Translations under genes and position numbers: made by a program
Source: Planctomycetota bacterium
Lineage (GTDB): Bacteria > Planctomycetota > B15-G4 > SIAN01
Length of the DNA: 64,000 nt
NCBI GenBank assembly: GCA_031409275.1
Contig: JANNXA010000033.1
Coordinates: 128,001 to 192,000 of the forward strand
Reading direction: 5' to 3'
Notes under the pieces: generated by a model
The model's database searches: none
What the model saw: the letters and a program-made list of their open reading frames with translations, nothing else
Told to the model about the DNA's origin: nothing
Part shown: piece after piece, positions 29,674-60,123 of the stretch
Layout: every line of letters begins with the position of its first letter
How positions within the stretch are numbered: the first letter of the stretch is position 1

Positions 29674-30950
<1,277 letters not shown>

Positions 30951-30954
<4 letters not shown>

Positions 30955-32418: not shown

Positions 32419-34386
32419 TCAGGTGCCGGCGTGCGCTGCGATCGCTTCGAGGAACGCCGGGCCGAGGTCGGCGGCTTTCTTGTCGCCGACGCCTTTGCAG
32501 GCGCGGAACTCCTCGGGAGTCGAAGGCTTGCGCGCGGCGAGCTCGGCCAGCGTGCGGTCGTTGAAGATCACGTAGGGCGGGACGCCGCGCGTGTGAGCCA
32601 GCTCTCGGCGCAGCTTGCGCAGCGTCTCGAAGAGGGCGTCGTCGACGGCGAGCGCCTCGTCATCGGCGGCCATCCGCGCCAAGGTCGGCCGTCCGCGCGA
32701 AGTCTTGGCCAGCTTGGGCAGGGCGAAGAGCTTCACTTCGCGCTGGCCGCGCAGGACCTCGCGGCCGCTGGGTGCGACGGCCAGCGTCGGGTAGTCGCCA
32801 TCGGCGACCGCGAGGAGGCCTTGCGCCACCAGCTGATCGACGCAGTGGCGGATCTCGCGGCTCGATTGCGAGGAGAGCAGGCCGAAGGTGGTGAGCTGAT
32901 CGTGGCCGTGCTGGCGCACCCGCTCCGAATCGGCGCCGCGCAGCACGTCGGCGATGTGGCCCGCGCCGAAGCGCTGCTCGCAGCGCACCACGCAGGAGAG
33001 GATCTTCTGGGCGACGACGGTCGCCTCGGGCAGCGACGCGAGCTCGCCGAGGCAGACATCGCAGGCGCCGCAGCCGCCGGTGGTTTCGCTGGCACCGTCG
33101 ACGGCGTCGCCGGTCGCACGGTCCGCCCACGTCTCGCCGAAATGCTCGACGAGGTAGCGGTGGCGGCAGCTGGCGCCGCCCGCAAACGCGAGCATCTGGC
33201 CGATGCGCTTCACCGCCGCGTCGACATCCTCCGGAGACCCTTCGCCCTCGCGAGCGCTGCGTTCGAGCAGGTTCTTCCACGAGTGCCAGTCGGACGCGGC
33301 GTAGAGCAGGACGCACTCCGCCGGCAGGCCGTCGCGGCCGGCGCGACCGCTCTCCTGCATGTACTGCTCGATCCCCTTCGGCAGGTTGGCGTGGACGACG
33401 TAGCGGACGTCGGCGCGGTCGATCCCCATGCCGAACGCCACCGTCGCGACCACGACGTCGACCTCTTCGTTGAGGAACTGCTCCTGGTTTCGGTGGCGCG
33501 TCTCGGGCTCGAGGCCGGCGTGGTAGGGGAGCGCCTTCACTCCCGCCCGCTGCAACGCCAGGGCGTGTTCCTCGACATCGCGACGGCGCAGCGCATAGAC
33601 GATGCCGGCCTGGTCGGGGTGACGCTTGATGACCGAGAGCACCTGCGCGAGCAGCTCGCCGCGCGGCTGGAAGCGGTAGGTGAGGTTGGGTCGATCGCAG
33701 CTGCCGACCAGCAACGCCGGGTCGCGCAGCCCGAGCTGCCGCACGATGTCGTCGCGCACGCCGGGCGTCGCCGTGGCGGTGAAGGCCTGGATCGGAATCT
33801 CGGGATGGTCGCGACGCAGCTGACCGAGCTGGCGGTACTCCGGCCGGAAGTCGTGCCCCCAGTGGCTGATGCAATGCGCTTCGTCGACCACCAGCGCGGC
33901 GAGCCCGGAGCCGAGCAGTTCGGCGAGGAAGCCGTCGAGCACCAGCCGTTCGGGCGCCACGTAGAGGAGCTTCAGCTGGCCGTCGCGCAGTTGCTGGCGC
34001 ACCTTGCGCCGCTCGTCAGGCGTCTGCGCGGAGGTCAGCATCCCGGCGGCGACACCACTCTCGCGCAGCCCGTCGATCTGGTCCTTCATCAATGAGATGA
34101 GCGGACTGACCACGGCGGTGACGCCGTTGCGAAGCAGCGCTGGCGCCTGGTAGCAGAGGCTCTTGCCGCCGCCGGTCGCCAGCACGACCACCGCATCGCG
34201 CCCCTGCAACGACGCGACCATCGCTTCGGCCTGCAGCGGCCGCAGCGTGGGGTAGCCCCACACGCGCTGGACGGTGGCCGCCAACTGTTCGCGCGCCGCT
34301 TCCGCCGCGGCGGGATCGGCCGCCGCCGGACTTGTTCGCGCCGCCCCTGCCGCTCCCGCCACTGTCGCGATCCCCGCTGCCCCCAC
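32419..34386 (-). CDS. recQ: ATP-dependent DNA helicase RecQ
   Basis: TGGGKSLCYQ, DEAHCISHWGHDFRPEY, QESGRAGRDG, Zn-binding CGACDVC, RQC and HRDC domains. Start uncertain. Confidence 0.95.
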   Translation of the reverse strand: MGAAGIATVAGAAGAARTSPAAADPAAAEAAREQLAATVQRVWGYPTLRPLQAEAMVASLQGRDAVVVLATGGGKSLCYQAPALLRNGVTAVVSPLISLMKDQIDGLRESGVAAGMLTSAQTPDERRKVRQQLRDGQLKLLYVAPERLVLDGFLAELLGSGLAALVVDEAHCISHWGHDFRPEYRQLGQLRRDHPEIPIQAFTATATPGVRDDIVRQLGLRDPALLVGSCDRPNLTYRFQPRGELLAQVLSVIKRHPDQAGIVYALRRRDVEEHALALQRAGVKALPYHAGLEPETRHRNQEQFLNEEVDVVVATVAFGMGIDRADVRYVVHANLPKGIEQYMQESGRAGRDGLPAECVLLYAASDWHSWKNLLERSAREGEGSPEDVDAAVKRIGQMLAFAGGASCRHRYLVEHFGETWADRATGDAVDGASETTGGCGACDVCLGELASLPEATVVAQKILSCVVRCEQRFGAGHIADVLRGADSERVRQHGHDQLTTFGLLSSQSSREIRHCVDQLVAQGLLAVADGDYPTLAVAPSGREVLRGQREVKLFALPKLAKTSRGRPTLARMAADDEALAVDDALFETLRKLRRELAHTRGVPPYVIFNDRTLAELAARKPSTPEEFRACKGVGDKKAADLGPAFLEAIAAHAGT

Positions 34387-34443
34387 GTCGAGCGCGAGAC
34401 GTTAGCCGCGTCGCGCGGTGACTCGCAGGGGCGAAGCGGCGCC

Positions 34444-36042
34444 TCACCTTCGCGGTAGGGGTGGCGCCATCCTCACGACCACCGATCCGTCGGCGTCGAC
34501 GGTGGTGGCCTGCACGATCCCCTCGATGCGCAGCGCGGCGTCGTCGTAGCTCGGCTCGCCGGGGCGGGAGGGGCGCGTCAATGCGGCGACCACGGCGTCG
34601 GTCGGCGTCGGCGTGCGCACCAGCAGCTCATGGCGCTCGTCGTCGGCGATCACCGCGACGTCGCCGCTCTTCGTCTGCAGGGAAACGGCGCCGAAGTCGA
34701 AGTGGGTCGGCGACATCGAGAAGAGCCGCTGCCCGGGCGCGACCCGCAACACGCCGAAGGGGGTGTAGCTCGAAGGCGACATCGCCGCCGTCGTCAACGC
34801 CGAGACGTCGATGCGCAGCAGCGTGCCGCTCCCCTCCAGCACGGAGGCGATCCGCCGCGCGCGCTCCTGTTCGGCGCGCGCTGCCTGGATCTCCTTCGCG
34901 GCGACCAGGGCCTCCCAGTTCGAGTCCGCTTCGAGCGCTTCGCTGCGTTCGGCGAGCTCCTCGGCCGAAGGCTGGCCCAGTGCGTCGGCGAGCAGCGCGG
35001 TCAGCGTCTCGCCCTGCGCCACTCGCCGTTTCCATTCGGGCAGCAGCGTGTCGAGCAGGCGGCCGATGGCGGCGCCGAAGAGGTAGCCGCGCCGCCGCAC
35101 CACCGCCGTGCCGAACTCGCTGCCGTTCACGCTCATCGTGTGGCGGGCGAGGCTCTTCAGCTGGAGCGACTGCTGCTCGACGGCGGCCGGCAGCTCGCTG
35201 CTGGCCTTGAAAGCGGGGCAGGCGGCGGCCAGCTCCTTCGAGATTCCGTGGTCGCGCCACAGCTCGAGCGAGCGCCATTCGACGTAGTTGGCCAACCCCT
35301 CGTTGGTCTCGTTGCTGTCCTCGGCGCGCACGACGGCGGCGGACAGTCCCGCGCGCCGCCGCGTGCGCTCCGCCAGGAACAGCAGCGCCTGCTCTTCGCG
35401 CTCGTCGGGCGCTTGCGCGGCCAGCGCGGCCAGCAGCGCATCGCCTTCGAGCTGCAGCCGTGCCGACCGCTCCGGTTCGAGGTCGGGGTAGTCGGCCATG
35501 TCGAGCTCGCTGTAGGCGGGGATCTTCAGTCCTCGATCGGCCCAGGCGTGGAACCCCTCGTGCACCTGCACCGAGAGGTTGTAGGAGTCGTCGATGGAAA
35601 CGCGCGCGCCGCGGTCGGTGACGACGAGCGTGCGCACGTTGTTGATCAGCGTCGTGGTGTCCATCCCGACGGTGTAGACCGTTTCGCCCCGCCGCACGAA
35701 GAGCGGCTCGTCACCGAGCGGGTTGGTGCCGTTGAACCGCACGAACGACGGCGGCGGTTGCGGGAAGCGCAGCAGCACTTCCGCCTTGCCGGGGTTCATC
35801 AGCAACGCCGGGATCGCGCTGAGCCGATAGCCCGGCCACAGTTCCGCCTCGTGCGCGTCGACCAACCGGCACGCCTCGCGCCACTGCAACAGCGTGATGG
35901 GATCGATGCCGAGCTCTTCCGTCGGGCACGACGCGGCCCGACTGGCGCCCGAAGTGGCGAGGACGAGGAGCGCTCCTCGCCACGCGAGTCGCCGGACGAA
36001 TCGTGGCGATCGCGGAAGGAGGTTCGGGCGCGAATCGGTCAC
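34444..36042 (-). CDS. Secreted putative zinc metallopeptidase (gluzincin-like)
   Basis: GAAGGAG RBS; signal-like N-terminus; VHEGFH (HExxH) followed by NEGLANYVE. Confidence 0.6.
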   Translation of the reverse strand: MTDSRPNLLPRSPRFVRRLAWRGALLVLATSGASRAASCPTEELGIDPITLLQWREACRLVDAHEAELWPGYRLSAIPALLMNPGKAEVLLRFPQPPPSFVRFNGTNPLGDEPLFVRRGETVYTVGMDTTTLINNVRTLVVTDRGARVSIDDSYNLSVQVHEGFHAWADRGLKIPAYSELDMADYPDLEPERSARLQLEGDALLAALAAQAPDEREEQALLFLAERTRRRAGLSAAVVRAEDSNETNEGLANYVEWRSLELWRDHGISKELAAACPAFKASSELPAAVEQQSLQLKSLARHTMSVNGSEFGTAVVRRRGYLFGAAIGRLLDTLLPEWKRRVAQGETLTALLADALGQPSAEELAERSEALEADSNWEALVAAKEIQAARAEQERARRIASVLEGSGTLLRIDVSALTTAAMSPSSYTPFGVLRVAPGQRLFSMSPTHFDFGAVSLQTKSGDVAVIADDERHELLVRTPTPTDAVVAALTRPSRPGEPSYDDAALRIEGIVQATTVDADGSVVVRMAPPLPRR

Positions 36043-36168
36043 AGGGGGTCTCCTTCAGGGCAAGGCAGCCGATACGGAGCAGTGGGCGCGGGTGATGGAA
36101 AAAGAGTGCGCACGGTCCGCGCCTCGCCGGCGTTGCGACTTCGACCCCCACGACCGATGATCGCCGCG

Positions 36169-36774
36169 ATGTCGCCTCGCCGCAAAGCGGACGCCCTGTC
36201 GGAGCGCGGGCTCGAGCTGCTGCGGGCGCAGCTCGGCCGCGACGCGAAGGATGCGGCGGCCGAGCTCGAACGGCTGCGGCTGACGCTCACCCGCTTCTTC
36301 GAGTGGCGCGGCGCCGCGTGGCCCGACGAGCAGGTCGACGAGGTGCTCGATCGCGTCGTGCGCAAGCTGGCCGAGGGCACGGCGCTGCTCGATCTCTTCG
36401 CCTTCGCGCTCGGCATCGCGCGGCTGGTGCTGCTCGAGTCCGCGCGGCGGCGGCCGCCACCGCTGGGGCTCGCGGCGGCAGAGCAGGTGGAGGCGCCTCG
36501 CGAGCCGGCCGGCGACGACGACCCGGCGGGGTCGCTCCGGCGCGCACTCGAGGCGTGTCTCGGCGAGCTGCCGCACCCCGCGCGGGAGCTGCTGCTGAGC
36601 TACTACACGGCGCGCGGTCGCGAGAAGATCGAGCGGCGCCAGCGGCTCGCCGCGCAGCTCCAGCTGAGCGAGTCGGCATTGCGCAACCGGGTGCAGCGGC
36701 TGCGTGACCGGCTCGAAGCTTGTGTGCGCGAACGAGAGCGACAGGTTTCGGGTCGCGAGGACACTCTTCGGTGA
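36169..36774 (+). CDS. ECF-type RNA polymerase sigma factor
   Basis: Region 2-like LTRFFEWRG..DEVLDRV..GIARLVLLE; region 4-like LEACLGELP..RELLLSYY..LAAQLQLSESALRNRVQRLRDRL. Confidence 0.82.
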   Translation: MSPRRKADALSERGLELLRAQLGRDAKDAAAELERLRLTLTRFFEWRGAAWPDEQVDEVLDRVVRKLAEGTALLDLFAFALGIARLVLLESARRRPPPLGLAAAEQVEAPREPAGDDDPAGSLRRALEACLGELPHPARELLLSYYTARGREKIERRQRLAAQLQLSESALRNRVQRLRDRLEACVRERERQVSGREDTLR

Positions 36775-36778
36775 AGTG

Positions 36779-37507
36779 ATGACGAGCCCCCACCCTACTC
36801 CCGACCTGCGGCACGCCTACCTCCTCGGAGAACTCTCCGAGGCGGACGGCGCCGCGCTCGAATCGGCCTACTTCGCGAGCGGCGAGTCGCTCGCGGCGAT
36901 GGAGGCCGCGGAGGAGGAGCTGATCGAGGCTGCGCTCGAGCGGCGCCTCGACCCGGTGGAGCAGGCGAAAGTCGAGAGCCGCCTCCTCGCCAGCGCACCG
37001 CTGCGTCGGCGCTTCGAGCTCGCGCGGCGATTGCAGGCGCGTGCCGGCGAGCCGTCGGTGCGGCGACGGCCGTGGCCGCCGATGGTCCGGGTGGCGCTGC
37101 TGGCGGCCACGGTCACGCTCGCCGCGCTGCTCTTCTGGCGCGAGGAGTCGTCGCCGCGATCGTCGCAGTCGCTGCTGCTGCCCGCGGTCCACACGCGCGG
37201 CGGCGGGTCGCTGCCCACGTTGGCGCTCGCGAGTGACACCGCGCAGGTGGAGCTGCGGTTGGCGAGCATCGACGCGCTGCCGCCGCCGCCGTGGCGTGCG
37301 TCGGTGGTCGCGGTCGGGGGCGGTGAGGCGTGGGTCGGCAGCGCCGTCGCCACGCCGACCGAGTCGACGGACGGCGTTCGAGCCGTCGTCGAGATCCCGG
37401 CGGCGCAGCTTCCCGCCGCCGACTATTTCGTGGGGCTGGTCAGCGCCGCGGCGCCACCCGACGAGGTGCCGCTTGCGCGCTGGTCGTTCCGCATCGTGCG
37501 CCGCTGA
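36779..37507 (+). CDS. Putative single-pass anti-sigma factor
   Basis: Immediately after the sigma gene; N-terminal YLLGELSE..LE..YF helical domain, one TM (VALLAATVTLAALLFW), extracytoplasmic beta-rich domain. Confidence 0.7.
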   Translation: MTSPHPTPDLRHAYLLGELSEADGAALESAYFASGESLAAMEAAEEELIEAALERRLDPVEQAKVESRLLASAPLRRRFELARRLQARAGEPSVRRRPWPPMVRVALLAATVTLAALLFWREESSPRSSQSLLLPAVHTRGGGSLPTLALASDTAQVELRLASIDALPPPPWRASVVAVGGGEAWVGSAVATPTESTDGVRAVVEIPAAQLPAADYFVGLVSAAAPPDEVPLARWSFRIVRR

Positions 37508-37518
37508 GCCGCGTCGCG

Positions 37519-40500
37519 ATGGGGCTCGCACTGCTCCTCTCGCTGGCAGTCGTCGCGACCGGCGTTGCGGCGCCGCCGATCGACGAGGCGCCGCTCGAGT
37601 TGCGCCAGCCGCTGACGCGCAGCGTCGAGCCCGGAGTCGTCGACGCGCTGCGGATCGACGTCGCGGCGGGCGAGTACGTCGAGATCGCGTCCGAACGGCC
37701 CTACCGCAGCCTCGGGCTGGAGCTCCTCGATCCTCACGGACGGGTCGTGGCGGCGACCCTCGGTGAGCCGCCGAACGGTTCGTCGCTTCGATTGGCCGCG
37801 GTGATCGCCGATCCCGGCACCCATCTCCTCACGATCGCGAACGACGACGTCGCGATGTTGGAGAGCGGCGCGCCGGCGCGGCGCGGCCGTTGCCGCATCG
37901 AACTGCTCGAGCGTCGGCCCGCGGTGGATGGCGACGCCGATCGGGTCGACGCCTTCGCGGCGCTCGATCGCGTGCGACGGACGGGGGCCGCAATCTCCGG
38001 GGATGCCGTCGCGTTGCGCGGTGCGCGCGACGAGCTCGCCGCGATCGCCGCACGCTTCGACGCGCTCGCCGCGTTCGAGGGCGCCGCGCTCTGCTTCCAC
38101 ACGCTGGCGCAGCTCGACGGCGTCGCGCATGACGACGCGGCGGCGGCACGCTCCGCCGAGGCCGCGGTGGCGGCGTGGCGCGCGGCGGGTCGACGGCGCG
38201 AGGAGGGGCGCGCGCGGAGCGAGGTCGGGCTGATCGCCTACGCCGCCTATCAGCGCGAGGCGGCGCGCGCCTCATACGACGAGGCGCTGGCGATTCACGA
38301 GGAGGTCGGCGACGTCGAGTGGATCGCCGAGACGCTCGATCGCCGCGGCTGGTTCGAGCGCTGGTGCGGCGATCGTCGCGCCGCCATCGCGACGTACGAG
38401 CGCTGTCTGCCGTTGCGCGTCGAGGCCGCCGACTGGCACGGCGAGATCGTGACGCTCACCGATCTCGGCGTCGCCCACCTCGAGCTCGGCGAGGTTGCCG
38501 CCGCCGCCGCGTGGCTGCAGCGCGCGCGCGACCTCGCGGCGCCGGCGCGCGACGGGACGAGCTTCACGAAGCTGCTGACGGTGTCGGGATGGCTCGAGCT
38601 GAGGGTGGGAGACTTCGCCGCGGCGGCGGTCACGCAGCAGCGATCGCTGGCGCAGGCGCGCGCGTCGCGCGACCGGCGCGGCGAAGCGCAGGCGCTCCAC
38701 AATCTCGGCAGGACCTGGGTGGAGCTCGGCGAGCTCGCGCAGGCGCGCGCGGCGAGCGAGCAGGCGCTGGTGATCGTGCGCGAGACGGGACAGCGCAGCG
38801 GCGAGACCGCGGAGCTGCTCTTCCTGGCTCAGCTGCGCCGCCACGAAGGGGATCTCGACCAAGCGATCGCCGATGCCGCGGCGGCGCTGGCGCTCGCCGA
38901 GGCGATCCACGACCGCGCCTTCGAGGCGGCCGCGCGCAGGGTCCTCGGCGAATGTTCGGCCGTGAACGGCGACCTGGAACGCGGGCGCGAGGAGCTCGAG
39001 GCGGCGCTGGCGCTCGAGCGCGAACTCGGCATGAAGCCGGCGGAGTCGAGCACGCTCGTCTGGCTGGCGAACGTGGTCGCCGCGCAAGGCGATTTAGAAG
39101 CCGCGATGCGCCTCTCCGAGCAGGCGCTCGCGATCGTCGAGGCGTTCGGCCTGCGCTCGAACGAGGCGGTGACGCGCAGCACGCTCGCGGCGCACGCCTT
39201 CGCCATCGGACAGCGGGAGACCGCGCGCGTCCAGCTGGAGCAGGCGCTGGCGCTGGGAGAGTCGCTCCGGCGACGCATGCCGCAGGACGATTGGCGCAGC
39301 AGCTACTTCACGACGCAGCTCGACCGCTACGCGCTCCTGCTCGACGTCCTGCTCGAAGGGCACGACGGAGCGCCCGAGCCCGCCGCGGTGGCGCGCGCCT
39401 TCGAGGTCAGCGAAGCGGCGCGCGCTCGCAGCCTGCTCGACCTGCTCTCCGAGGCGAAGGTCGACGTGCGTGCGGGCGCCGATGCGACGCTGCTCGCGCA
39501 GGAGCGCGGCCTGACCCAGGAGCTCCACTTCGCCGCCGCCGCGTTGGATCAGCTGGTGCAAGGCGCGGCGACGGCGGCGCAAGCCGCGGCCGCGTCGGCG
39601 AAGGTCGAGGCGATCTCGAACCAGCTGCGCGAGATCGAGACGCGGCTGCGCGCCAGCTCGCCGCGATTCGCCGCGTTGAGTCCGGCGCGACCGTCGACGG
39701 CGGCGGCGATCCAGCACGAGCTGCTCGACGACGAGACGGTGCTCCTCGAATTCGCGTTCGGTCGTGAGGCGACCTGGCTCTTCGCGGTCACGCGGCAGTC
39801 GCTGGAGGCGCATCGGCTCGCGCCGCGCGCTGCGCTGGAGGCGTCGGCCTCCGCGGCGATCGCGGCGATGACCGCCCGCAGCGGGCGCATCGAGGAGGAG
39901 GGCGCTTCGCGTCAGGCGCGCATCGCCGCCGCCGATGCGCAGACGCCGGCGCGGCTCGCCGAGCTCCGGCGGCTCCTGCTCGGCCCGGTCGAAGGCGCGT
40001 TGCAGGGAGAGTGGCGCCACCGCCGCCTCGTCGTCGTGGCGCCGGGACGCCTCGCTGCGCTGCCCTTCGCCGCGCTCGTGGCCCAGGAGGTGGTCCTCCT
40101 GCCGTCGGCCTCGGTCCTCGCGATCGTGCGCTCCTCGGCCGCCCCGCGGCCGTCCGGCGTGCGCCCGATCGCCGTGCTGGCCGATCCCGTCTTCGAGCGC
40201 GACGACCCGCGGTTGACGAGCGCGTCGAAGGGCGTGCCGTCGTCGTCCGCGACGGCGGAGCGCATGGGCTACGCGCGACTGCCGTTCTCGGGCGAAGAGG
40301 CGGCGCGGATCGCCGCTCTGGTCGAGCCGGGCCGCGTGCGGCGCTTCGAGGGATTCGATGCGACGCGTGATGCGGTGGTCGCCGGCACGTTCGCCGACTG
40401 CGGCATCGTCCACTTCGCGACGCACGGCCTCGTCGACGTCGAGAAACCGGAGCACAGCGGCATGGTCCTTTCGCTCCTCACGCGCGACGGCGCGGAGCAG

Positions 40501-40848
40501 GACGGGCTTCTGTGTCTTGCGGACTTGTTTCGATTGCGGATGCCCGCCGACCTCGTCGTGTTGAGCGCGTGCAAGACGGCGCTGGGTCGCGACATCCCCG
40601 GCGAGGGGCTCGTCGGTTTGACGCGCGCCTTCTTCCATGCCGGCGCCTCCCGCGTGGTGGCGAGCTTGTGGGAGGTGGATGACCTCGCGACCGCCGAACT
40701 GATGCGCCGCTTCTATCGAGGCGTGCTGCAGGAGGGGCGTTCGCCGGCGGCGGCGTTGCGGCTGGCGCAGGACGAGATGGCGGCGCAGGAGCGGTTCGCC
40801 GTTCCCTACTGGTGGGCAGGTTTCGTGCTTCAGGGCGAGTGGCGCTGA
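37519..40848 (+). CDS. Secreted TPR-CHAT (caspase-like) protease
   Basis: Signal peptide; TPR repeats; SEAARARSLLDLL; catalytic HFATHG and VVLSACKT; PYWWAGFVLQGEW. Confidence 0.92.
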   Translation: MGLALLLSLAVVATGVAAPPIDEAPLELRQPLTRSVEPGVVDALRIDVAAGEYVEIASERPYRSLGLELLDPHGRVVAATLGEPPNGSSLRLAAVIADPGTHLLTIANDDVAMLESGAPARRGRCRIELLERRPAVDGDADRVDAFAALDRVRRTGAAISGDAVALRGARDELAAIAARFDALAAFEGAALCFHTLAQLDGVAHDDAAAARSAEAAVAAWRAAGRRREEGRARSEVGLIAYAAYQREAARASYDEALAIHEEVGDVEWIAETLDRRGWFERWCGDRRAAIATYERCLPLRVEAADWHGEIVTLTDLGVAHLELGEVAAAAAWLQRARDLAAPARDGTSFTKLLTVSGWLELRVGDFAAAAVTQQRSLAQARASRDRRGEAQALHNLGRTWVELGELAQARAASEQALVIVRETGQRSGETAELLFLAQLRRHEGDLDQAIADAAAALALAEAIHDRAFEAAARRVLGECSAVNGDLERGREELEAALALERELGMKPAESSTLVWLANVVAAQGDLEAAMRLSEQALAIVEAFGLRSNEAVTRSTLAAHAFAIGQRETARVQLEQALALGESLRRRMPQDDWRSSYFTTQLDRYALLLDVLLEGHDGAPEPAAVARAFEVSEAARARSLLDLLSEAKVDVRAGADATLLAQERGLTQELHFAAAALDQLVQGAATAAQAAAASAKVEAISNQLREIETRLRASSPRFAALSPARPSTAAAIQHELLDDETVLLEFAFGREATWLFAVTRQSLEAHRLAPRAALEASASAAIAAMTARSGRIEEEGASRQARIAAADAQTPARLAELRRLLLGPVEGALQGEWRHRRLVVVAPGRLAALPFAALVAQEVVLLPSASVLAIVRSSAAPRPSGVRPIAVLADPVFERDDPRLTSASKGVPSSSATAERMGYARLPFSGEEAARIAALVEPGRVRRFEGFDATRDAVVAGTFADCGIVHFATHGLVDVEKPEHSGMVLSLLTRDGAEQDGLLCLADLFRLRMPADLVVLSACKTALGRDIPGEGLVGLTRAFFHAGASRVVASLWEVDDLATAELMRRFYRGVLQEGRSPAAALRLAQDEMAAQERFAVPYWWAGFVLQGEWR

Positions 40849-41050
40849 GCAGCGCCGCTCGCGCGCAAGGACGACTTGCGCCGCACGATCGGGTCCAGGG
40901 CGTGGACGGCGGGCACTTCGCGCTGGGAGGCCTTGCGCGACGGCTCCGGTAGCGGTTGCGATGGTCCGAGCATTGCACGGCCTTCGACACGTTTCGTTGG
41001 CGGTTGCCACCTGCCTGGCAACGAGCGGTGGGTCACGCAGGAGCTACGAC

Positions 41051-42631
41051 ATGGCAAGCGGGAAGACGTTCCTCACAGTTGGATGCATCGCGCTGGCGGG
41101 CGCTCGCGCTCACGCGCAGATGACCGATCTCACGCAGGCGCCCAATCGCGAGGGCGCCGGCATCCACAAGTCGCTCGCAGAGCAGGTCGGCGCCGGGCGC
41201 GGCGATGCGTTCACGCCCGACTCGTCGCGCTTCCTGATCGGACGCGATCCGTTCCGCTCGATCCGGCGTGGTCGTCAGCTGTTCCAACGCAAGTTCACGC
41301 TGGCGCAGGGCCTCGGTCCACGCACGCTCGACGGCGAAGGGGACCTCGAGCGCGATGGCTCCATCGGCGCCGGCCTCACCGACAGCTGCGCGTCGTGCCA
41401 CAGCCGGCCCTTCGGCTCGGCGGGCGTCGGCGGCAACGTCTTCACGCGTCCCGACAGCCGTGACGCGCCGCACCTCTTCGGTCTCGGGCTGCAGGAGATG
41501 CTCGCCGACGAGATCACGCGCGCGCTCCGTTCGTTGCGCGCCGACGCGATCGCGCAGGCGCGCTCGTCGAATCGATCCGCCACCGTCGCGCTGACGGCGA
41601 AGGGGATCGCCTACGGTTCGCTGACGGCATTCCCGGATGGCTCGCTCGACACGACGCAGGTGGTCGGCGTCGATCCCGACCTGCGCGTGCGCCCCTTCTT
41701 CGCGCAAGGCGGCACCGTCTCGATTCGCGAGTTCGTGGTGGGAGCGCTCAATGCCGAGATGGGGCTCGAATGCCCCGATCCCGACACGTGGGCGGCCTCC
41801 CAAGGCAGTGACGTCGTGACGCCCTCCGGCATGTTGCTCTCGGGCTCGATCGATCGCATCGAAGCGCCGCCGGCGAGCCTCGTGACCGACGATCCCGACG
41901 GCGACGGTGTCACCAACGAGATCGATGTCGCGCTCGTCGATCACCTCGAGTTCTACCTGCTGAACTACTTCAAGCCGGGACGCGGCGAGATCACCAGCGC
42001 GGTGAAGTCGGGGCGCAAGAGCTTCGAGGCGATCGGCTGCGCGAGCTGCCACGTGCGCGGCCTCTGGATCGACGAGGATCGTCGCGTGGCCGACGTCGAG
42101 ACGGCGCACGACCCGCAACAGGGCAACGGAGTGTTCAACTCCCTCTACGCCGACGCGCAGCTGCGCCACGCGACGGTCGACGATGGCAGCGGCTACGCGC
42201 CGCTGCAGTCCGCCGCGCGCCAACCCTTCTTCGTCGAAGGGATCTTCACGGACTTCAAGCGCCACGACCTCGGCCCGGGTTTCCACGAGCGCAACTTCGA
42301 CGGCTCGATCACGACGCACTTCATGACCGAGCCGCTGTGGGGCGTCGCCGATACGGCCCCGTACGGCCACGACGGCCGCAGCCCGCAGCTGCACGACGTC
42401 ATCCTGCGCCACGGTGGCGAGGCGCAGTCGGCGCGCGACGCCTACGCCGCCGCCAGCGACACCACCCGGGCCAACATCCAGGCCTACCTGCGCAGCTTCG
42501 TCCTCTTCTCGCCGGAGGACACCGCTTCGGTGCTGAATCCGGTGAATCGCGCAGCGCCGAACTATCCGATGCATGGCCACGGCAGCATCAGCCTGACCCC
42601 GCTCTTCAACGACCCGAGCGACCTCGAATAG
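41051..42631 (+). CDS. Di-heme oxidoreductase family (DUF1111-like) protein
   Basis: AGGAG RBS; signal peptide; two CASCH motifs; APHLFGLGL; PLWGVADTAPYGHDGRS..ILRHGGEA. Confidence 0.82.
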   Translation: MASGKTFLTVGCIALAGARAHAQMTDLTQAPNREGAGIHKSLAEQVGAGRGDAFTPDSSRFLIGRDPFRSIRRGRQLFQRKFTLAQGLGPRTLDGEGDLERDGSIGAGLTDSCASCHSRPFGSAGVGGNVFTRPDSRDAPHLFGLGLQEMLADEITRALRSLRADAIAQARSSNRSATVALTAKGIAYGSLTAFPDGSLDTTQVVGVDPDLRVRPFFAQGGTVSIREFVVGALNAEMGLECPDPDTWAASQGSDVVTPSGMLLSGSIDRIEAPPASLVTDDPDGDGVTNEIDVALVDHLEFYLLNYFKPGRGEITSAVKSGRKSFEAIGCASCHVRGLWIDEDRRVADVETAHDPQQGNGVFNSLYADAQLRHATVDDGSGYAPLQSAARQPFFVEGIFTDFKRHDLGPGFHERNFDGSITTHFMTEPLWGVADTAPYGHDGRSPQLHDVILRHGGEAQSARDAYAAASDTTRANIQAYLRSFVLFSPEDTASVLNPVNRAAPNYPMHGHGSISLTPLFNDPSDLE

Positions 42632-43140
42632 GTCGCTGCTTGGCCGCCGCCGCGTCGGTCCCTGGCGGGCCGGCGCGTGCGGCGCGGATCAGCTTCTTGG
42701 CGATGGCGAAGGTCTGCGGCGTGAATCCCTGCGCATCGGGCTGATTCGGGGCGGCTCCATGGCCCAGCAGCCAGAGCGCTGGCGCGAACTTGCCCCAGCG
42801 AACGAGGTCGTTCAGCAGCGGTCGATCGGCGCTGCGCGCCGCCGCGAGGTCGGCGCCTTGCGCCAGGCAGAACTCGCCGAAGCGCGCGAACTCCTCCTTC
42901 GTGTTCCACATCGCCGTGACCAACGCGCGCGTTGCGTCGGCCCAGCGCTCGAGCAGCAGCCTCGTCTCGTCGAAGCGACGAGCGCCGCTGCGGATCGGCG
43001 CCGGCGTCGAGCAACGCGACGATCGAGGCGCAGCGCGCCGCCTCGTCGATCGGCGGCTCGTCACCATGGGGATCGTCCTGGATCAGCGCCGCGAGCGGCG
43101 TCCATCCGCGCGGGGAGCGATTGGTGTGTATGTCGCCACG
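42606..43140 (-). pseudogene. Frameshifted ankyrin-repeat gene remnant
   Basis: One frame reads GWTPLAALI...LLDAGADP. Near 42980 a different frame continues LLLERWADA..CLAQGAD..WLLGHGAAPNQPDAQGFTP. No clear start, and the 3' end overlaps the convergent gene. Confidence 0.5.
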
Positions 43141-43223
43141 CCCGCGCGAGGCCGATGGAGCGTCGAGTTCGACCGCGCGCCGAGCATGGCGTGGCGATCA
43201 TCGGATCCGAAGATCGCGGACGA

Positions 43224-43703
43224 TCAGCCGTTGGCGGCCGCCGCCTTCGCCTTCGCGTCCGCATCGCGCCGTTTGGTGACGGCCGCCAGCGCTTCCACGA
43301 CGCGGCGCGGCGCGGCCTGATCGCGGCTGTCGGCCGCGGCGTGCGCGAGATCGGACAGCGCGACGACGCCGAGCGGGCGGTCGTCGGCATCGACGATCGG
43401 GAGACGGCGCAACTGGTGGGTCGCCATGAGTCGCGCCGCATCCTCGTCGCTGTCGCTGGCGCGGCAACGCACGACGCTGTCGCTCATCGCGACACGTACC
43501 CCGATCGCGGCGAGCGGCAGCCCTTGAATGTAGGCGGCCATGCAGATGTCGCGATCGGTCAGCATGCCGACCAGCTTTCCCTCGCGATCGACGACGACCA
43601 GCGCGCCGCAATCGTGTTCCCACAACAGCTGGGCGGCGCGATTGAGGTCATCGTCGGCCTGGATCTTGATGACCGGTTGACTCATGCGCTGATCGAGCTT
43701 CAT
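43224..43703 (-). CDS. CBS domain-containing protein
   Basis: DCGALVVVD..LVGMLTDRDI; QLRRLPIVD..LGVVALSDLA; AGGAG RBS. Confidence 0.9.
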   Translation of the reverse strand: MKLDQRMSQPVIKIQADDDLNRAAQLLWEHDCGALVVVDREGKLVGMLTDRDICMAAYIQGLPLAAIGVRVAMSDSVVRCRASDSDEDAARLMATHQLRRLPIVDADDRPLGVVALSDLAHAAADSRDQAAPRRVVEALAAVTKRRDADAKAKAAAANG

Positions 43704-44338
43704 CGACGGAACTCCTGTTTTCATTCCTATGCGAGACACGCCGCCGATGCATCGACCAGTTCACTCGTTTCGCAACGCGGGGGGCGCGCCGTCGTCTTCC
43801 ATGTGATCGGGAAGTGGGGACGCATACCCCGTGCCGCCGTGGTGGCTCGCCCCGCTCCGGAGGAGCACCGTTGATGCGAAGGGGCGGGCGAGTGGGCGCT
43901 CAGGCTCGCCCAGGGAGGGGCCACGTTTCCCGGACGGATTCGGTCGAACGCGGGCCGAGGAGGGGGCTTGCGGATGGTGCGCGCACGCGATCGTCGAGCG
44001 AGGGGTCGCGACGATCGATCGCAGCCCAGATCGCCGATCGAACCGCTGCGCGTCTCCCGTGCCGACGTCCATGCGAAGGCGTGCGATGGCATCGCGCCGC
44101 GTGGTCAGGCGCTTGCCCGCCGGGGGCTTCAACATGTCGTTGCGCTGTGCGGCCATTACGGCGGTTCAGGCGCGGCTGTCACCGACGCGCGATGATGACG
44201 TCTCTGGCGTCGTGCGAGCGGTGACGCGTCGAACTCCGGCGTGTCCCCTGCTTGCGGTGCAGGAGAGACATCGTTCGGCGCGACGCTGCCCGGAGCGAGT
44301 TCCCCGCTCGAGGTGCGGCGATCGGGAGACTCGCGCCC

Positions 44339-45277
44339 ATGTTCGATCGCCTGCAGGTCGAGAACTTCCGCGGCTTCGAGTCGCTCGGACTGCGGGAGTT
44401 GGCGCGTTGCAACCTGATCGTCGGCAGCAACGATCGCACGGTGGGATCGCTGTTCCATCGTCGCGACTTGACGAAGGTGATCGTCGTGCGCGGGAGTATC
44501 GACAAAGGCGATCACGCGGGGAGGTCACGCGAAGTTCGCTACGAGCTGCGGGACGATCCGCCGGGGATTCGGCATCGCATGGCAGTACAGCGCAGCAACT
44601 CGAGTTGGGTCGTCCAGTTGAGTTTCGACGATGCCGCGCACAACGCACGAGGCGCCTGTGCGTTCACCTTCGGCGCCGGACGCGTGCAGGGCCGCACCGG
44701 GAACGTAGTCCCCGACTTTCCCCTCGCGGTCATCACCACCAACCAGCCGCCCCGCCATCTCGCGCACTACGCTCGCTGGTTCTCCAAGCTCGAGGAGGCG
44801 GGGGGGCAGGACAAAGTCGTCGCGCTGCTGCGCGATGTCGAACCACGTCTGCAGGCGATTTCGGTGGCCGCTTCGGATCACGGCCCATATCTCCACGCCG
44901 ATCTCGGCCTCGGCCGACGGATGCCGTGCTCCTTCCTCAGTGACGGCTTCACGCGCTTCCCGCTATTGGCCATGCGAATGTTCAAAGCGCGCAGCGGGAT
45001 GATGCTGATCGACGAGATCGAGTCGAGCTTCCACCGTAGCGTGCTCGACCGAGTTTTCGCCTTCGTGCGCGATGCAGCACGCGAGCTCGACGTGCAGCTC
45101 TTCGCGACGACCCACAGCTGGGAGATCCTCGAGGCGGCGCGCTCCGCCTTCGCTGCGTCGAAGCCCTACGAACTTGCCGTTCACCGCCTCGCGCACGACG
45201 GCGAGCGCGCCGTTGCCCATCACCTCGGTGAGGGCGCGATCGAGGCAGCTCTTGCGACGGGGCTCGACATCCGATGA
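44339..45277 (+). pseudogene. AAA_15/AAA_21-type ABC ATPase lacking Walker A (probable internal deletion)
   Basis: QVENFRGF..NLIVGSN is followed by DRTV instead of xxGK[ST]. Signature LSDG, Walker B LIDEIE and H-loop FATTHS are retained. Confidence 0.7.
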
Positions 45278-45871
45278 AACCGCTGGCGACGCGTCCACCG
45301 CCGGCGCCGCTCTACGTTCTCGGTGAAGGGGAGGACGAGCGCCACTTTTTCGAGCAACTCTGCCGCGTGCACGGGATCGAGGGGGTTCACTGCCTCCAGT
45401 ACGACGGTCGCGACGCGCTTCGCGGCGACCTTGCGTCGTTGCGCTCGATCCTGGAACCCGCAGTCAGAACGTTGTTGATCGTCCAAGACGCCGATGACGC
45501 GGCGGCCGTGGCCTTCACGCGGGTGCGCGATGCTCTTGCCGCGAACGGCTTTCCCGCGCCCGACGCCTCGAACGTGCTCGCGGTTGGCGCGCCGGCGACC
45601 TGCGTCCTCATCTTGCCCGGCGATGGTCAGGCCGGAACGGGAGTGCGTCGAGCAGTTCCTCGAGTGCATCACGAAGCGCAGTCGTCAGTCGATAGCCGCT
45701 GCCCACAAGGCACCGATCCGCGCGTGGCTCACGACCCGTTTGCGCGCTGAAACACGCGTCGGGCTGGCCGCAAGGCTCGGCTCGCTGCCGCTCGACCGGC
45801 TGCCGTTCGCGGCTCTCGCGGATCGGTTGCGCGAGCTCGCGTCGCTCAGAAACGCCCATCGAGCGCCGTGA
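45274..45871 (+). pseudogene. DUF3226-like (TOPRIM-like) partner, frameshifted
   Basis: ATGA overlap with the ATPase; VLGEGEDE and IVQDADD. After ILPGDGQAG (~45635) the family-like C-terminus (ECVEQFLECI..HKAPIRAWL..GLAA..PFAALADRL) continues in another frame. Confidence 0.65.
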
Positions 45872-58230: not shown

Positions 58231-60123
58231 ATGACCGGTACCAGCCGCCGCCTCGCGCGCCTCGTCGTCCTACTGCTTGCCGCGACCGCCGGGCTGCTGG
58301 CGGCCGGCGGCTATGGCTTGTGGCGCAGCGCGCGCGACAGCGAGGCGCTCGCTCGCGGTGCCGCTGAGCGGGCGGTCTTCAGCGCCGCGCGCGCGCTGCA
58401 GCTCCACTTCGCCGATCCCGAGGCGCTGCCGACCGACCCGCTCGATCCCGCACGATTCGAGCTCGTCGATGGCGTGCTGCGGTGGCCGGAGTCGACGCAG
58501 CCGTGGCCGCTCGACTCGCTCGATCCCGACCTCGACCTCGCCGCTCTCCTGCTGGCGCCGCTCGATGAAGCGGATGCGGCGGTGGCGCAGGGCGACGCTG
58601 CCGCGGCGACGGCGGCGTTGGATCGCGCGATCGAGCTCGCGCGACAGCAGCCGGCACGGCAGCTCGCCTACGTGCTCAATTCCGCCGCTTGGACGGCGGC
58701 GCGCGCGGGCGACGGCACGCGCCGCGACGCGCTCCTGAACGAACTGCTGGCGCTGCTGCCACCTCACCCGATCGAGGGGCCGCCGCCCTACGCCTCCGTC
58801 TTCGCCGGCGCGCTGCTCCTCGCGCTTGCGCACGCTCCCGACGCGCCGCTCCTCGCGGCGCCCGACGCGGCGCTCGCCTCGCTGCAACCGTCGGTGCGGG
58901 TCGCCCTGCTGGCGCGCGCGGTCGAGACGACGTCGCCGCATGCGCCGTTCGCGGTCGCTGCGGCGCGTGTCGAGCAACGCGAACAACTCTCCACGCGGAT
59001 CACCTCGCAGCTCGCGCGCCTATCCGAGCGGCGCGCCCCGCTCGTCGAGCCGTGCGCGGAGGGTTGGCTGCTCTACCAGCCCGATCCAGCTCGCGCCGGC
59101 CGCGGCCGCGGCGCATGGCGCTCGCTCGCGGAACTGCTGCCGTCCGCTCGCGCGAATGCGAACGGCTTCGATCTCGACGACGCGACGCTGGCGCCCGGCG
59201 GCGCGGTGCGGCTGGTCGTCGGCGAGCCGCTGCCGGCTGCCGCGATGCCGATCGCCTCGGGACTCGGCCTCTTGCCGCGGCCGTTGCCGGCGCCCGGCTT
59301 CTTCGCATCGACCGGCGCGCTCGCAACGACGCTCGTCGTGCTCGGCGGGGCGCTCGTCGCGGCGTTGTGGCTGGTGCTTCGCACCGTGCAGCGCGAGTCG
59401 GCGACGATCACGGCGCGCGGCCGTTTCCTCACTTCGGTGACGCACGAACTCAAGACGCCGCTGGCCTCGATCCGCCTGCTCTCCGAGCTGCTGGTCGAGG
59501 GGCGAGCGACGATCGAGAAGCAGGACGAGTACCACCGCTTGCTCGCCGGCGAAGCGGAGCGCCTCTCCGCCCTGATCGAGAACGTGCTCGACGTCGCGTC
59601 GCTGGAGCGCAGCGAGCGGGCGTTGGCGATCGCGCCGCAACGGGTCGACCTGCTGCTGCGCGACGTCGTGCAGCGGGTGTCGCCGTTGCTCGAACGCGAC
59701 GGGCTCACCGTCACGCTCGAACTGCCCGAAGAACCGCTCGAACTGGCGGTCGACCGCGGCGCGCTGTCGCAGATCGTCATCAACCTGCTCGACAACGCGC
59801 GCAAGTACGCGACGGCGGGCGGCTCGGTCGTCGTCACGCTCGCTCCGCCGCCGCCGGCGTCGCTCCACGGCCGCGTGGCCGTGAGGGTGCGCGACCGCGG
59901 GCCGGGAATCGCGCCGGCCGATCGGGAGTCCCTCTTCGAGCCGTTCGTGCGCGGCGCGGCGCAAGGCGATGGCGCGACCCCGGGATTGGGGCTCGGGCTC
60001 CACCTTGCGCGCACGCTGGCACGTCGCCACGGTGGCGAGCTCGCGTGCATGGCGCCGCCCGACGGCGGGCCGGGCGCCTGCTTCGAGTTGACGTTGCCGG
60101 TCGACCGCGGAGGAGGCGCGTGA
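58231..60123 (+). CDS. Sensor histidine kinase
   Basis: Two TMs; H-box VTHELKTPL; N-box NLLDNARKY; G1 DRGPGI; G2 GLGLGL. Confidence 0.93.
   Translation: MTGTSRRLARLVVLLLAATAGLLAAGGYGLWRSARDSEALARGAAERAVFSAARALQLHFADPEALPTDPLDPARFELVDGVLRWPESTQPWPLDSLDPDLDLAALLLAPLDEADAAVAQGDAAAATAALDRAIELARQQPARQLAYVLNSAAWTAARAGDGTRRDALLNELLALLPPHPIEGPPPYASVFAGALLLALAHAPDAPLLAAPDAALASLQPSVRVALLARAVETTSPHAPFAVAAARVEQREQLSTRITSQLARLSERRAPLVEPCAEGWLLYQPDPARAGRGRGAWRSLAELLPSARANANGFDLDDATLAPGGAVRLVVGEPLPAAAMPIASGLGLLPRPLPAPGFFASTGALATTLVVLGGALVAALWLVLRTVQRESATITARGRFLTSVTHELKTPLASIRLLSELLVEGRATIEKQDEYHRLLAGEAERLSALIENVLDVASLERSERALAIAPQRVDLLLRDVVQRVSPLLERDGLTVTLELPEEPLELAVDRGALSQIVINLLDNARKYATAGGSVVVTLAPPPPASLHGRVAVRVRDRGPGIAPADRESLFEPFVRGAAQGDGATPGLGLGLHLARTLARRHGGELACMAPPDGGPGACFELTLPVDRGGGA

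Follow-up and report, generated by a model that had tools for sequence, protein, structure and literature searches.

A sigma factor, putative membrane anti-sigma factor and likely exported TPR-CHAT protease encoded as a conserved gene trio, with an invariant arginine as predicted cleavage site

The locus

We analysed a stretch of 64,000 nucleotides (the window) from the genome of a Planctomycetota bacterium (GenBank assembly GCA_031409275.1, contig JANNXA010000033.1, positions 128,001 to 192,000; genome G000, contig C33, 70% GC), in which three genes on the + strand encode a predicted, divergent extracytoplasmic function (ECF) sigma factor, a single-pass membrane protein that is its putative anti-sigma factor, and a TPR-CHAT protease. 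The sigma gene has two candidate ATG starts (36157/36169-36774), the anti-sigma gene follows after 4 nt (36779-37507) and the TPR-CHAT gene begins at its own start 11 nt past the anti-sigma stop (37519-40848). A di-haem cytochrome c gene lies downstream on the + strand (41051-42631), and on the - strand a gene for a metallopeptidase-like protein with an HExxH...E signature (34444-36042), part of the host backbone and outside the module, is separated from the sigma gene by 126 bp (36043-36168) if the second ATG is used and by 114 bp if the first is used. An earlier reading of the letters alone (the original prediction) had reported the open reading frames (ORFs) of the trio, the 4- and 11-nt spacing and the HExxH gene diverging from a gap of 126 bp, and on re-reading all were present. 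Positions 34147-43500 are spanned with no differences by one contig, from a run that may be the source of this DNA.

The trio is conserved

The 205-aa sigma product (from start 36157) matches TIGR02989 with an E value of 1.6e-13 over residues 58-190, under the cut-off of that model, and has weak matches to the sigma70-ECF and r4_2 models; the family profile gave no match in the PDB at E<=1. Many of its 401 homologs are labelled sigma24 or sigma-70 family, and the predicted ECF identity agrees with these names, with the gene context and with the bipartite motif described below.

For synteny we used 115 loci, namely 35 from GTDB, chiefly from Acidobacteriota but some from Nevskia, Dokdonella and other groups, and the top 80 of 225 metagenome loci; the search alignment contained 77 of the 401 sigma homologs. 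An anti-sigma homolog follows the sigma gene in 106 of the 115 loci, and a CHAT domain is encoded in 69 of them and in 24 of the 26 that extend at least 4.5 kb on both flanks, counts that overstate independence because some loci are near duplicates (L020/L022, L004/L091, L055/L056, L084/L085). The CHAT gene may lie downstream or upstream of the sigma/anti-sigma pair, or diverge from it. The trio is thus co-inherited as a conserved unit.

A scan with PADLOC found no core cas gene or CD-NTase among 86 neighbour ORFs, chosen from 119 after removal of trio, antisense and repeated haem ORFs; its six matches were all generic (ATPase, kinase, WYL etc.). We conclude that the module is no passenger of a defence island, and the survey of sigma/anti-sigma/CHAT triplets bears out the earlier proposal of a CRISPR-independent trio.

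Two TPR-CHAT genes stand by one sigma/anti-sigma pair in L004, L007, L020 and L022, which suggests several sensors per switch. The host genome has a second CHAT-domain ORF (G000:C7, about 119,600-120,000, in an open frame of 1,399 residues) that lacks a family sigma of its own; the window's sigma is the sole family member in the genome.

Promoter motif and output

Unseeded Gibbs sampling over 13 upstream regions, the window excluded, found the bipartite motif CGACACGTTT-N13-CAC(T/C) in 13 of 13, with a total score of 363 against 205-214 in four shuffles run with fewer restarts. The two top matches among 11,167,142 positions of the host genome both fall in the module, the third scoring 19.1. 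The best (22.0 bits, 36738-36765, +) lies in the 3′ end of the sigma gene, 14 nt ahead of the anti-sigma ATG, and is the predicted sigma-dependent promoter of the anti-sigma and CHAT genes; the second (19.9 bits, 40984-41011, +) is the predicted promoter of the di-haem gene. Upstream of anti-sigma starts, matches scoring at least 10 were found for 23 of 61 homologs vs 1 of 61 control windows. At 16 bits or more the loci hold 98 sites vs 3.3 expected (13 of the 98 being training sites), and the genes behind these sites are those of sigma, anti-sigma, CHAT and diverse secreted proteins. The motif is bipartite and confined to trio loci, and is therefore probably the promoter used by the trio's sigma; the predicted promoter and regulon are strongly supported by these counts.

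Back-to-back copies of the motif on opposite strands, facing the sigma gene and a divergent gene, occur at L005:6806/6807, L012:1019, L013:6825, L020:6849/6852, L021:1038, L023:6819, L037:6813, L055:2481, L099:357 and L105:1372/1373. The window has no such pair and no motif upstream of its own sigma gene.

The gene at 41051-42631 encodes a secreted DHOR-like di-haem cytochrome c of 526 aa with two CASCH motifs (Pfam DHOR, E 2e-11). Neighbour clustering over 61 loci and the window identified such proteins as the one recurrent partner; a DHOR homolog is present in 20 of the 115 loci and is divergent from the trio in 15 of those 20, and none was found in the four same-genus genomes searched. A second haem-protein type, with weak CCP_MauG or RoxA-like matches, takes the output position behind the same motif in three loci (L015:5584-6978, L019:2289-3785, L096:5336-6835), and hints at a redox or peroxide theme. 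Synteny and motif together make the downstream secreted di-haem cytochrome gene the likely output of the module.

The anti-sigma factor and Arg140

The membrane protein has a helical, zinc-free N-domain (residues 8-89), a transmembrane (TM) helix (residues 101-120; 37079-37138, +) and an Ig-like extracytoplasmic domain (residues 128-241). None of 62 homologs has a CxxC in its first 100 residues, and the best match to zf-HC2 had an E value of 0.038. The protein likely sequesters the ECF sigma factor, and the profile of its family matches 4,353 clusters at 50% identity (E<=1e-30).

Arg140, in the sequence HTRGGGS (codon 37196-37198, +), is the predicted P1 residue on grounds of conservation and of the modelled interface described below. 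It is invariant in all 62 aligned anti-sigmas, where it is one of just three invariant columns at 29% mean column identity and the sole one outside the cytoplasm, and in 150 of 150 further 50%-cluster representatives, which are the top scorers against a profile that itself contains the Arg. The residue after it is Gly in 78, Ser in 57 and Ala in 12 of the 150 representatives, a small residue in 147. The R-G cleavage motif of the original prediction thus holds for its Arg and gives way, at the Gly, to a small residue of varying identity. The exposed segment that the prediction placed shortly after the TM helix is likewise present, in the model not as a free flexible linker but as a loop between strands 128-134 and 147-150 of the folded Ig-like domain. 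The distance from Arg140 to the TM helix varies from 18 to 78 residues among members, so its position is set by the domain rather than by the membrane.

Asp215 (37421-37423, +), a predicted exosite contact to Arg920 of CHAT from conservation and the modelled pair, is kept in 150 of 150 representatives and lost in 3 of the 62, all divergent members that keep Arg140. The Nevskia loci L026, L027 and L029 have divergent members; Asp215 is missing from the anti-sigmas of L027 and L029, which keep the Arg, and in L026 and L027 a large pro-kumamolisin/invasin-Ig protein comes next.

The TPR-CHAT protease

From Pfam matches and the structural model, the product of 37519-40848 comprises a signal-like peptide, a PPC-like beta domain (residues 21-134), TPR helices, and pseudo-caspase and CHAT domains. 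The CHAT match is above its cut-off (PF12770, 205.9 bits vs 24, E 1e-60), and there is a Pfam TPR match too. All 36 aligned homologs keep catalytic His969 (HFATHG; 40423, +) and Cys1018 (LSAC; 40570, +), the dyad already picked out by the original prediction, and also Arg920, Glu927, Asp896-Pro897-Arg898 and Asp1055. The monomer model (pLDDT 87.5, pTM 0.84) begins with a short hydrophobic segment and shows a beta domain, TPR helices and a caspase region in two parts; in 4 of 36 members the beta domain weakly resembles PPC. The top Foldseek matches are separase, DdvA and Csx29, all with low TM scores (0.22-0.35).

By hydropathy, each of the 39 CHAT ORFs with the N-terminal beta domain has a signal-like stretch ahead of it, vs 16 of 205 control segments, which agrees with the signal peptide first noted in the window; two further CHAT ORFs lack the domain. 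The protease is likely exported, and hydropathy and the positive-inside rule would put it in the same compartment as the Arg loop.

The complex model and the proposed mechanism

We modelled CHAT residues 235-1109 with anti-sigma residues 122-242. The complex scored 0.66 vs 0.00 for the best control, with contact agreement between runs of at least 96% and partner pLDDT of at least 80; the score mark is reached by 116 of 157 solved pairs and 2 of 215 mismatched pairs, counts that hold roughly for custom alignments. The modelled interface takes in CHAT 967-971, 1016-1019 and 1052-1056, and thus His969 and Cys1018, along with anti-sigma loop 136-145. The best-defined pairs are those of an exosite, Arg920-Asp215 (2.1 A expected error) and 920-923 with 234-238, and the first of these would account for two invariants at once. 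Modelling of CHAT with the outer domain, anticipated by the original prediction, therefore supports binding with the Arg loop at the active-site dyad, short of showing cleavage.

Our preferred reading, to which we give a probability of about 0.6, is that the exported CHAT docks on the Ig-like domain of the anti-sigma, cuts it after Arg140 and frees the sigma for the haem and anti-sigma/CHAT genes. With CHAT inactive at rest, the putative anti-sigma would keep the sigma bound. An extracytoplasmic cue, for which the PPC-like or TPR domains are candidate sensors, would switch CHAT on, and CHAT, its dyad at the Arg loop as modelled, would then cut after Arg140. The remaining stub of about 20 residues would be removed by RseP, which is present in the host genome above the model cut-off, by analogy with DdvA of Myxococcus xanthus, which RseP cleaves after removal of its TPR-CHAT part (PMC11506125). 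Transcription by the released sigma would then yield the haem protein and more anti-sigma and CHAT, and so reset the switch.

That exosite pairs are the best-defined contacts would also suit an Arg loop acting as a pseudosubstrate or inhibitor, in which case CHAT would shield the anti-sigma until a competitor displaced CHAT and envelope proteases degraded the anti-sigma. There are precedents: Arg126 of the gingipain prodomain enters S1, but in a pose that disfavours cleavage (PMC4357240), securin is a pseudosubstrate inhibitor of separase (PMC10317155), and DdvA dyad mutants are described as having no resting phenotype, autocleavage not being seen. Securin, however, inhibits by a replaced P1 Arg and becomes cleavable once the Arg is restored (PMC10317155), and an invariant Arg, a small residue after it and a fully conserved dyad suit a cleavage site better. 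We regard such shielding as unlikely.

That Arg140 falls between strands one and two of the folded domain raises another possibility, that CHAT cuts there constitutively as a maturation step, the pieces being held together by strand 128-134 until pulling, unfolding or a redox change admits RseP. Other anti-sigmas are described as being cut constitutively with products that stay associated (PMC11506125; RsgI, PMC10328401). The TPR-CHAT proteases studied so far, however, rest in an inactive dyad geometry until triggered, and the large sensor-like PPC/TPR region would be left unexplained; we think constitutive maturation decidedly unlikely.

Arg140 might instead be structural, for example in a salt bridge with Asp215, and CHAT one more secreted member of the regulon that acts on other proteins. 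Asp215 is equally invariant in the 150 representatives, and the promoter motif also stands ahead of CHAT genes in some loci, e.g. L007, L056, L064 and L086. Against this, the Arg is kept in the three members without Asp215, the model pairs Asp215 with CHAT Arg920 and passes its controls, and CHAT stays with the sigma/anti-sigma pair while the other outputs vary. A structural role of this kind seems improbable.

Several points weigh against our preferred reading, in addition to the choice of the 150 representatives. On the substrate side, strand 128-134 would remain part of the sandwich after a cut at Arg140, and the domain may therefore stay attached. On the side of the model, Arg140-Cys1018 is not among the 25 best-defined contacts named, the pass may be due in part to likeness with solved separase or craspase substrate complexes, and the modelled complex is equally compatible with a substrate and an inhibitor. 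Specificity is a further concern. Csx29 cleaves after Met or Leu, so a CHAT domain does not imply a preference for Arg. In separase the aspartate that binds P1 Arg is D2151/D2070, at Cys+41 (PMC10317155, PMC9729208); in a weak alignment (E 0.3) this position falls on Ala1059 and the invariant Asp1055 on another separase Asp, at Cys+37. No acidic S1 residue was found at CHAT Cys+41, a column of Ala, Ser or Thr, or at Cys-2, which is Ser. MALT1, gingipain and metacaspase carry S1 acids in alpha1, L4 or L5 (PMC4357240, PMC4626109), and by position Asp1055 (loop after beta5) and Glu927 (alpha1) are candidates here; Asp1055 lies within the modelled interface, and Glu927 is not among the interface residues named. 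In the survey, no CHAT domain was found within 7 kb in L011 and L030, two of the 26 long loci, and four DHOR orthologs from the order lack both the trio and the motif in their neighbourhood, so the di-haem gene is not exclusive to the module.

The divergent peptidase and the genomic setting

The original prediction had named the divergent metallopeptidase as the output of the module. Its product, which may be of the gluzincin type, has an N-terminal hydrophobic stretch and the motifs HEGFH and, later, NEGLA, with His161, Glu162, His165 and Glu248 invariant in 23 of 23 homologs; of 42 genomes in the order 13 carry the family, its closest named members are labelled Planctomycetes, and we found no Pfam, NCBIfam, PDB or named Atlas match. 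Activation by the sigma from 36043-36168 would be in keeping with the hydrophobic stretch and with the divergent output gene that is the commonest layout of the family (15 of the 20 DHOR genes). Yet a peptidase homolog was found in 0 of the 115 trio loci (by tblastn and profile, many of the loci being short), and the best promoter motif score upstream of the peptidase gene is -0.4, equalled or beaten at 58,974 genome positions. The peptidase also stands upstream of recQ, as it does here, without the trio in three relatives (G324, G325 and G322; 16-18 kb fetched), and is co-directional with recQ in at least three. The role of this gene as the sigma's output is thus not supported, and we now consider it very improbable.

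Since relatives have the peptidase-recQ arrangement without the trio, and the sigma family was found in one of 301 genomes of the phylum, the window's own, the trio is best read as an insertion beside a resident gene. In G324 and G325 the peptidase has as neighbours the CBS gene and the 153-aa ORF, which in the window stand at the far end of the module. Among 41 other genomes of the order the anti-sigma profile gave just weak partial matches, in 6. Around the peptidase in G323, and on the G326 contig, which is short, we saw no recQ and no trio. Trio and haem gene thus look like a horizontally acquired module, inserted beside a host peptidase-recQ backbone.

Elsewhere in the window, an AAA_21 ATPase and a DUF3226 gene form a pair (44252-45750, +) that is a possible two-gene defence or toxin-antitoxin system, the ATPase matching the PADLOC models PDC-M38A and AbiLi with E values of about 1e-29. 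An unrelated ECF sigma with a DUF6596 extension (29674-30954, -) belongs to the host backbone and is shared with G324.

Comparison with known systems

The closest known system is DdvA/DdvS of M. xanthus (PMC11506125, PMC6061681; PDB 8rw5, 8rot). Both have an ECF sigma, a single-pass anti-sigma and an extracytoplasmic TPR-CHAT with a His/Cys dyad (likely extracytoplasmic in the trio), both have sigma-dependent promoters inside the locus (predicted ones in the trio), and in both CHAT is proposed as the site-1 protease that acts before RseP; Foldseek aligns the window's CHAT to 8rw5 with an E value of 1.4e-15. In DdvA, however, CHAT is fused to the anti-sigma, whereas here a stop codon (37505-37507), the 11-nt gap and a start of its own separate the TPR-CHAT gene from the anti-sigma domain and TM helix, and the separate protein carries a signal-like peptide and a PPC-like domain. 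The DdvA anti-sigma has a CHCC zinc centre, while that of the trio is zinc-free with an Ig-like outer domain and an invariant Arg. The promoters differ (GTAAn16CGT for DdvS, the predicted CGACACGTTT-N13-CAC here), as do the outputs, CBASS/CRISPR in M. xanthus and probably secreted haem and other exported proteins here.

The original prediction had drawn on type III-E craspase, Csx29/Csx30/CASP-sigma (PMC10028731, PMC9729208), in which the separate TPR-CHAT protein Csx29 cleaves the sigma inhibitor Csx30 in trans (PMC10028731). Cleavage in trans would be a likeness, with a Foldseek E value of 4.7e-12 to 8eey, and DdvA/DdvS takes the place of craspase as nearest system. Craspase is cytoplasmic, is activated by RNA via Cas7-11 and cuts a soluble Csx30 after Met or Leu, and the window's sigma scores 15.4 bits against the type III-E sigma model NF041236, whose cut-off is 100.

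The ECF54 group (PMC7826278) resembles the trio in that a conserved TPR-CHAT gene lies close to the ECF sigma (0.71 per ECF). As described there, it is limited to Actinobacteria, has no anti-sigma, uses the promoter GTATCAG/CTCC and neighbours subtilase and carboxypeptidase-regulatory-like genes; the trio has an anti-sigma-like TM gene in 106 of 115 loci, another motif and a mostly acidobacterial range. The available part of its supplement contains none of the motif words GACAC, TCACT and GCACT. Separase (clan CD, C50) is the best structural match to CHAT (E 3.4e-17, TM about 0.33) and has the same layout of TPR, pseudo-caspase and caspase; cleavage at P1 Arg would be shared. It is, however, eukaryotic and cytoplasmic, and its P1-Arg aspartate is not kept at the aligned position. 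Our literature search found no description of a split sigma/anti-sigma/CHAT form.

Significance

For DdvA, a role of CHAT as the site-1 protease that cuts an anti-sigma is proposed but unproven (PMC11506125), because one polypeptide contains both enzyme and substrate and no signal is known. In the split form the enzyme is separate, the substrate domain measures 120 residues, a P1 residue and an exosite pair are predicted, and there is a promoter on which to build a reporter; with enzyme and substrate apart, the site-1 step is directly testable.

With odds that we put slightly above even, the trio represents a widespread, unpublished class of bacterial envelope signalling. In it a free periplasmic protease like separase would serve its own anti-sigma as dedicated site-1 enzyme, would recognize the Ig-like domain by way of the exosite Arg920-Asp215 and would cut at one invariant Arg, and the released ECF sigma would drive, from a defined promoter, a compact and portable regulon of secreted haem and surface proteins, its own inhibitor and the protease. 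If true, this would give abundant secreted TPR-CHAT proteins a non-defence function, supply an unclassified ECF family with a promoter and describe a portable protease-gated transcription switch.

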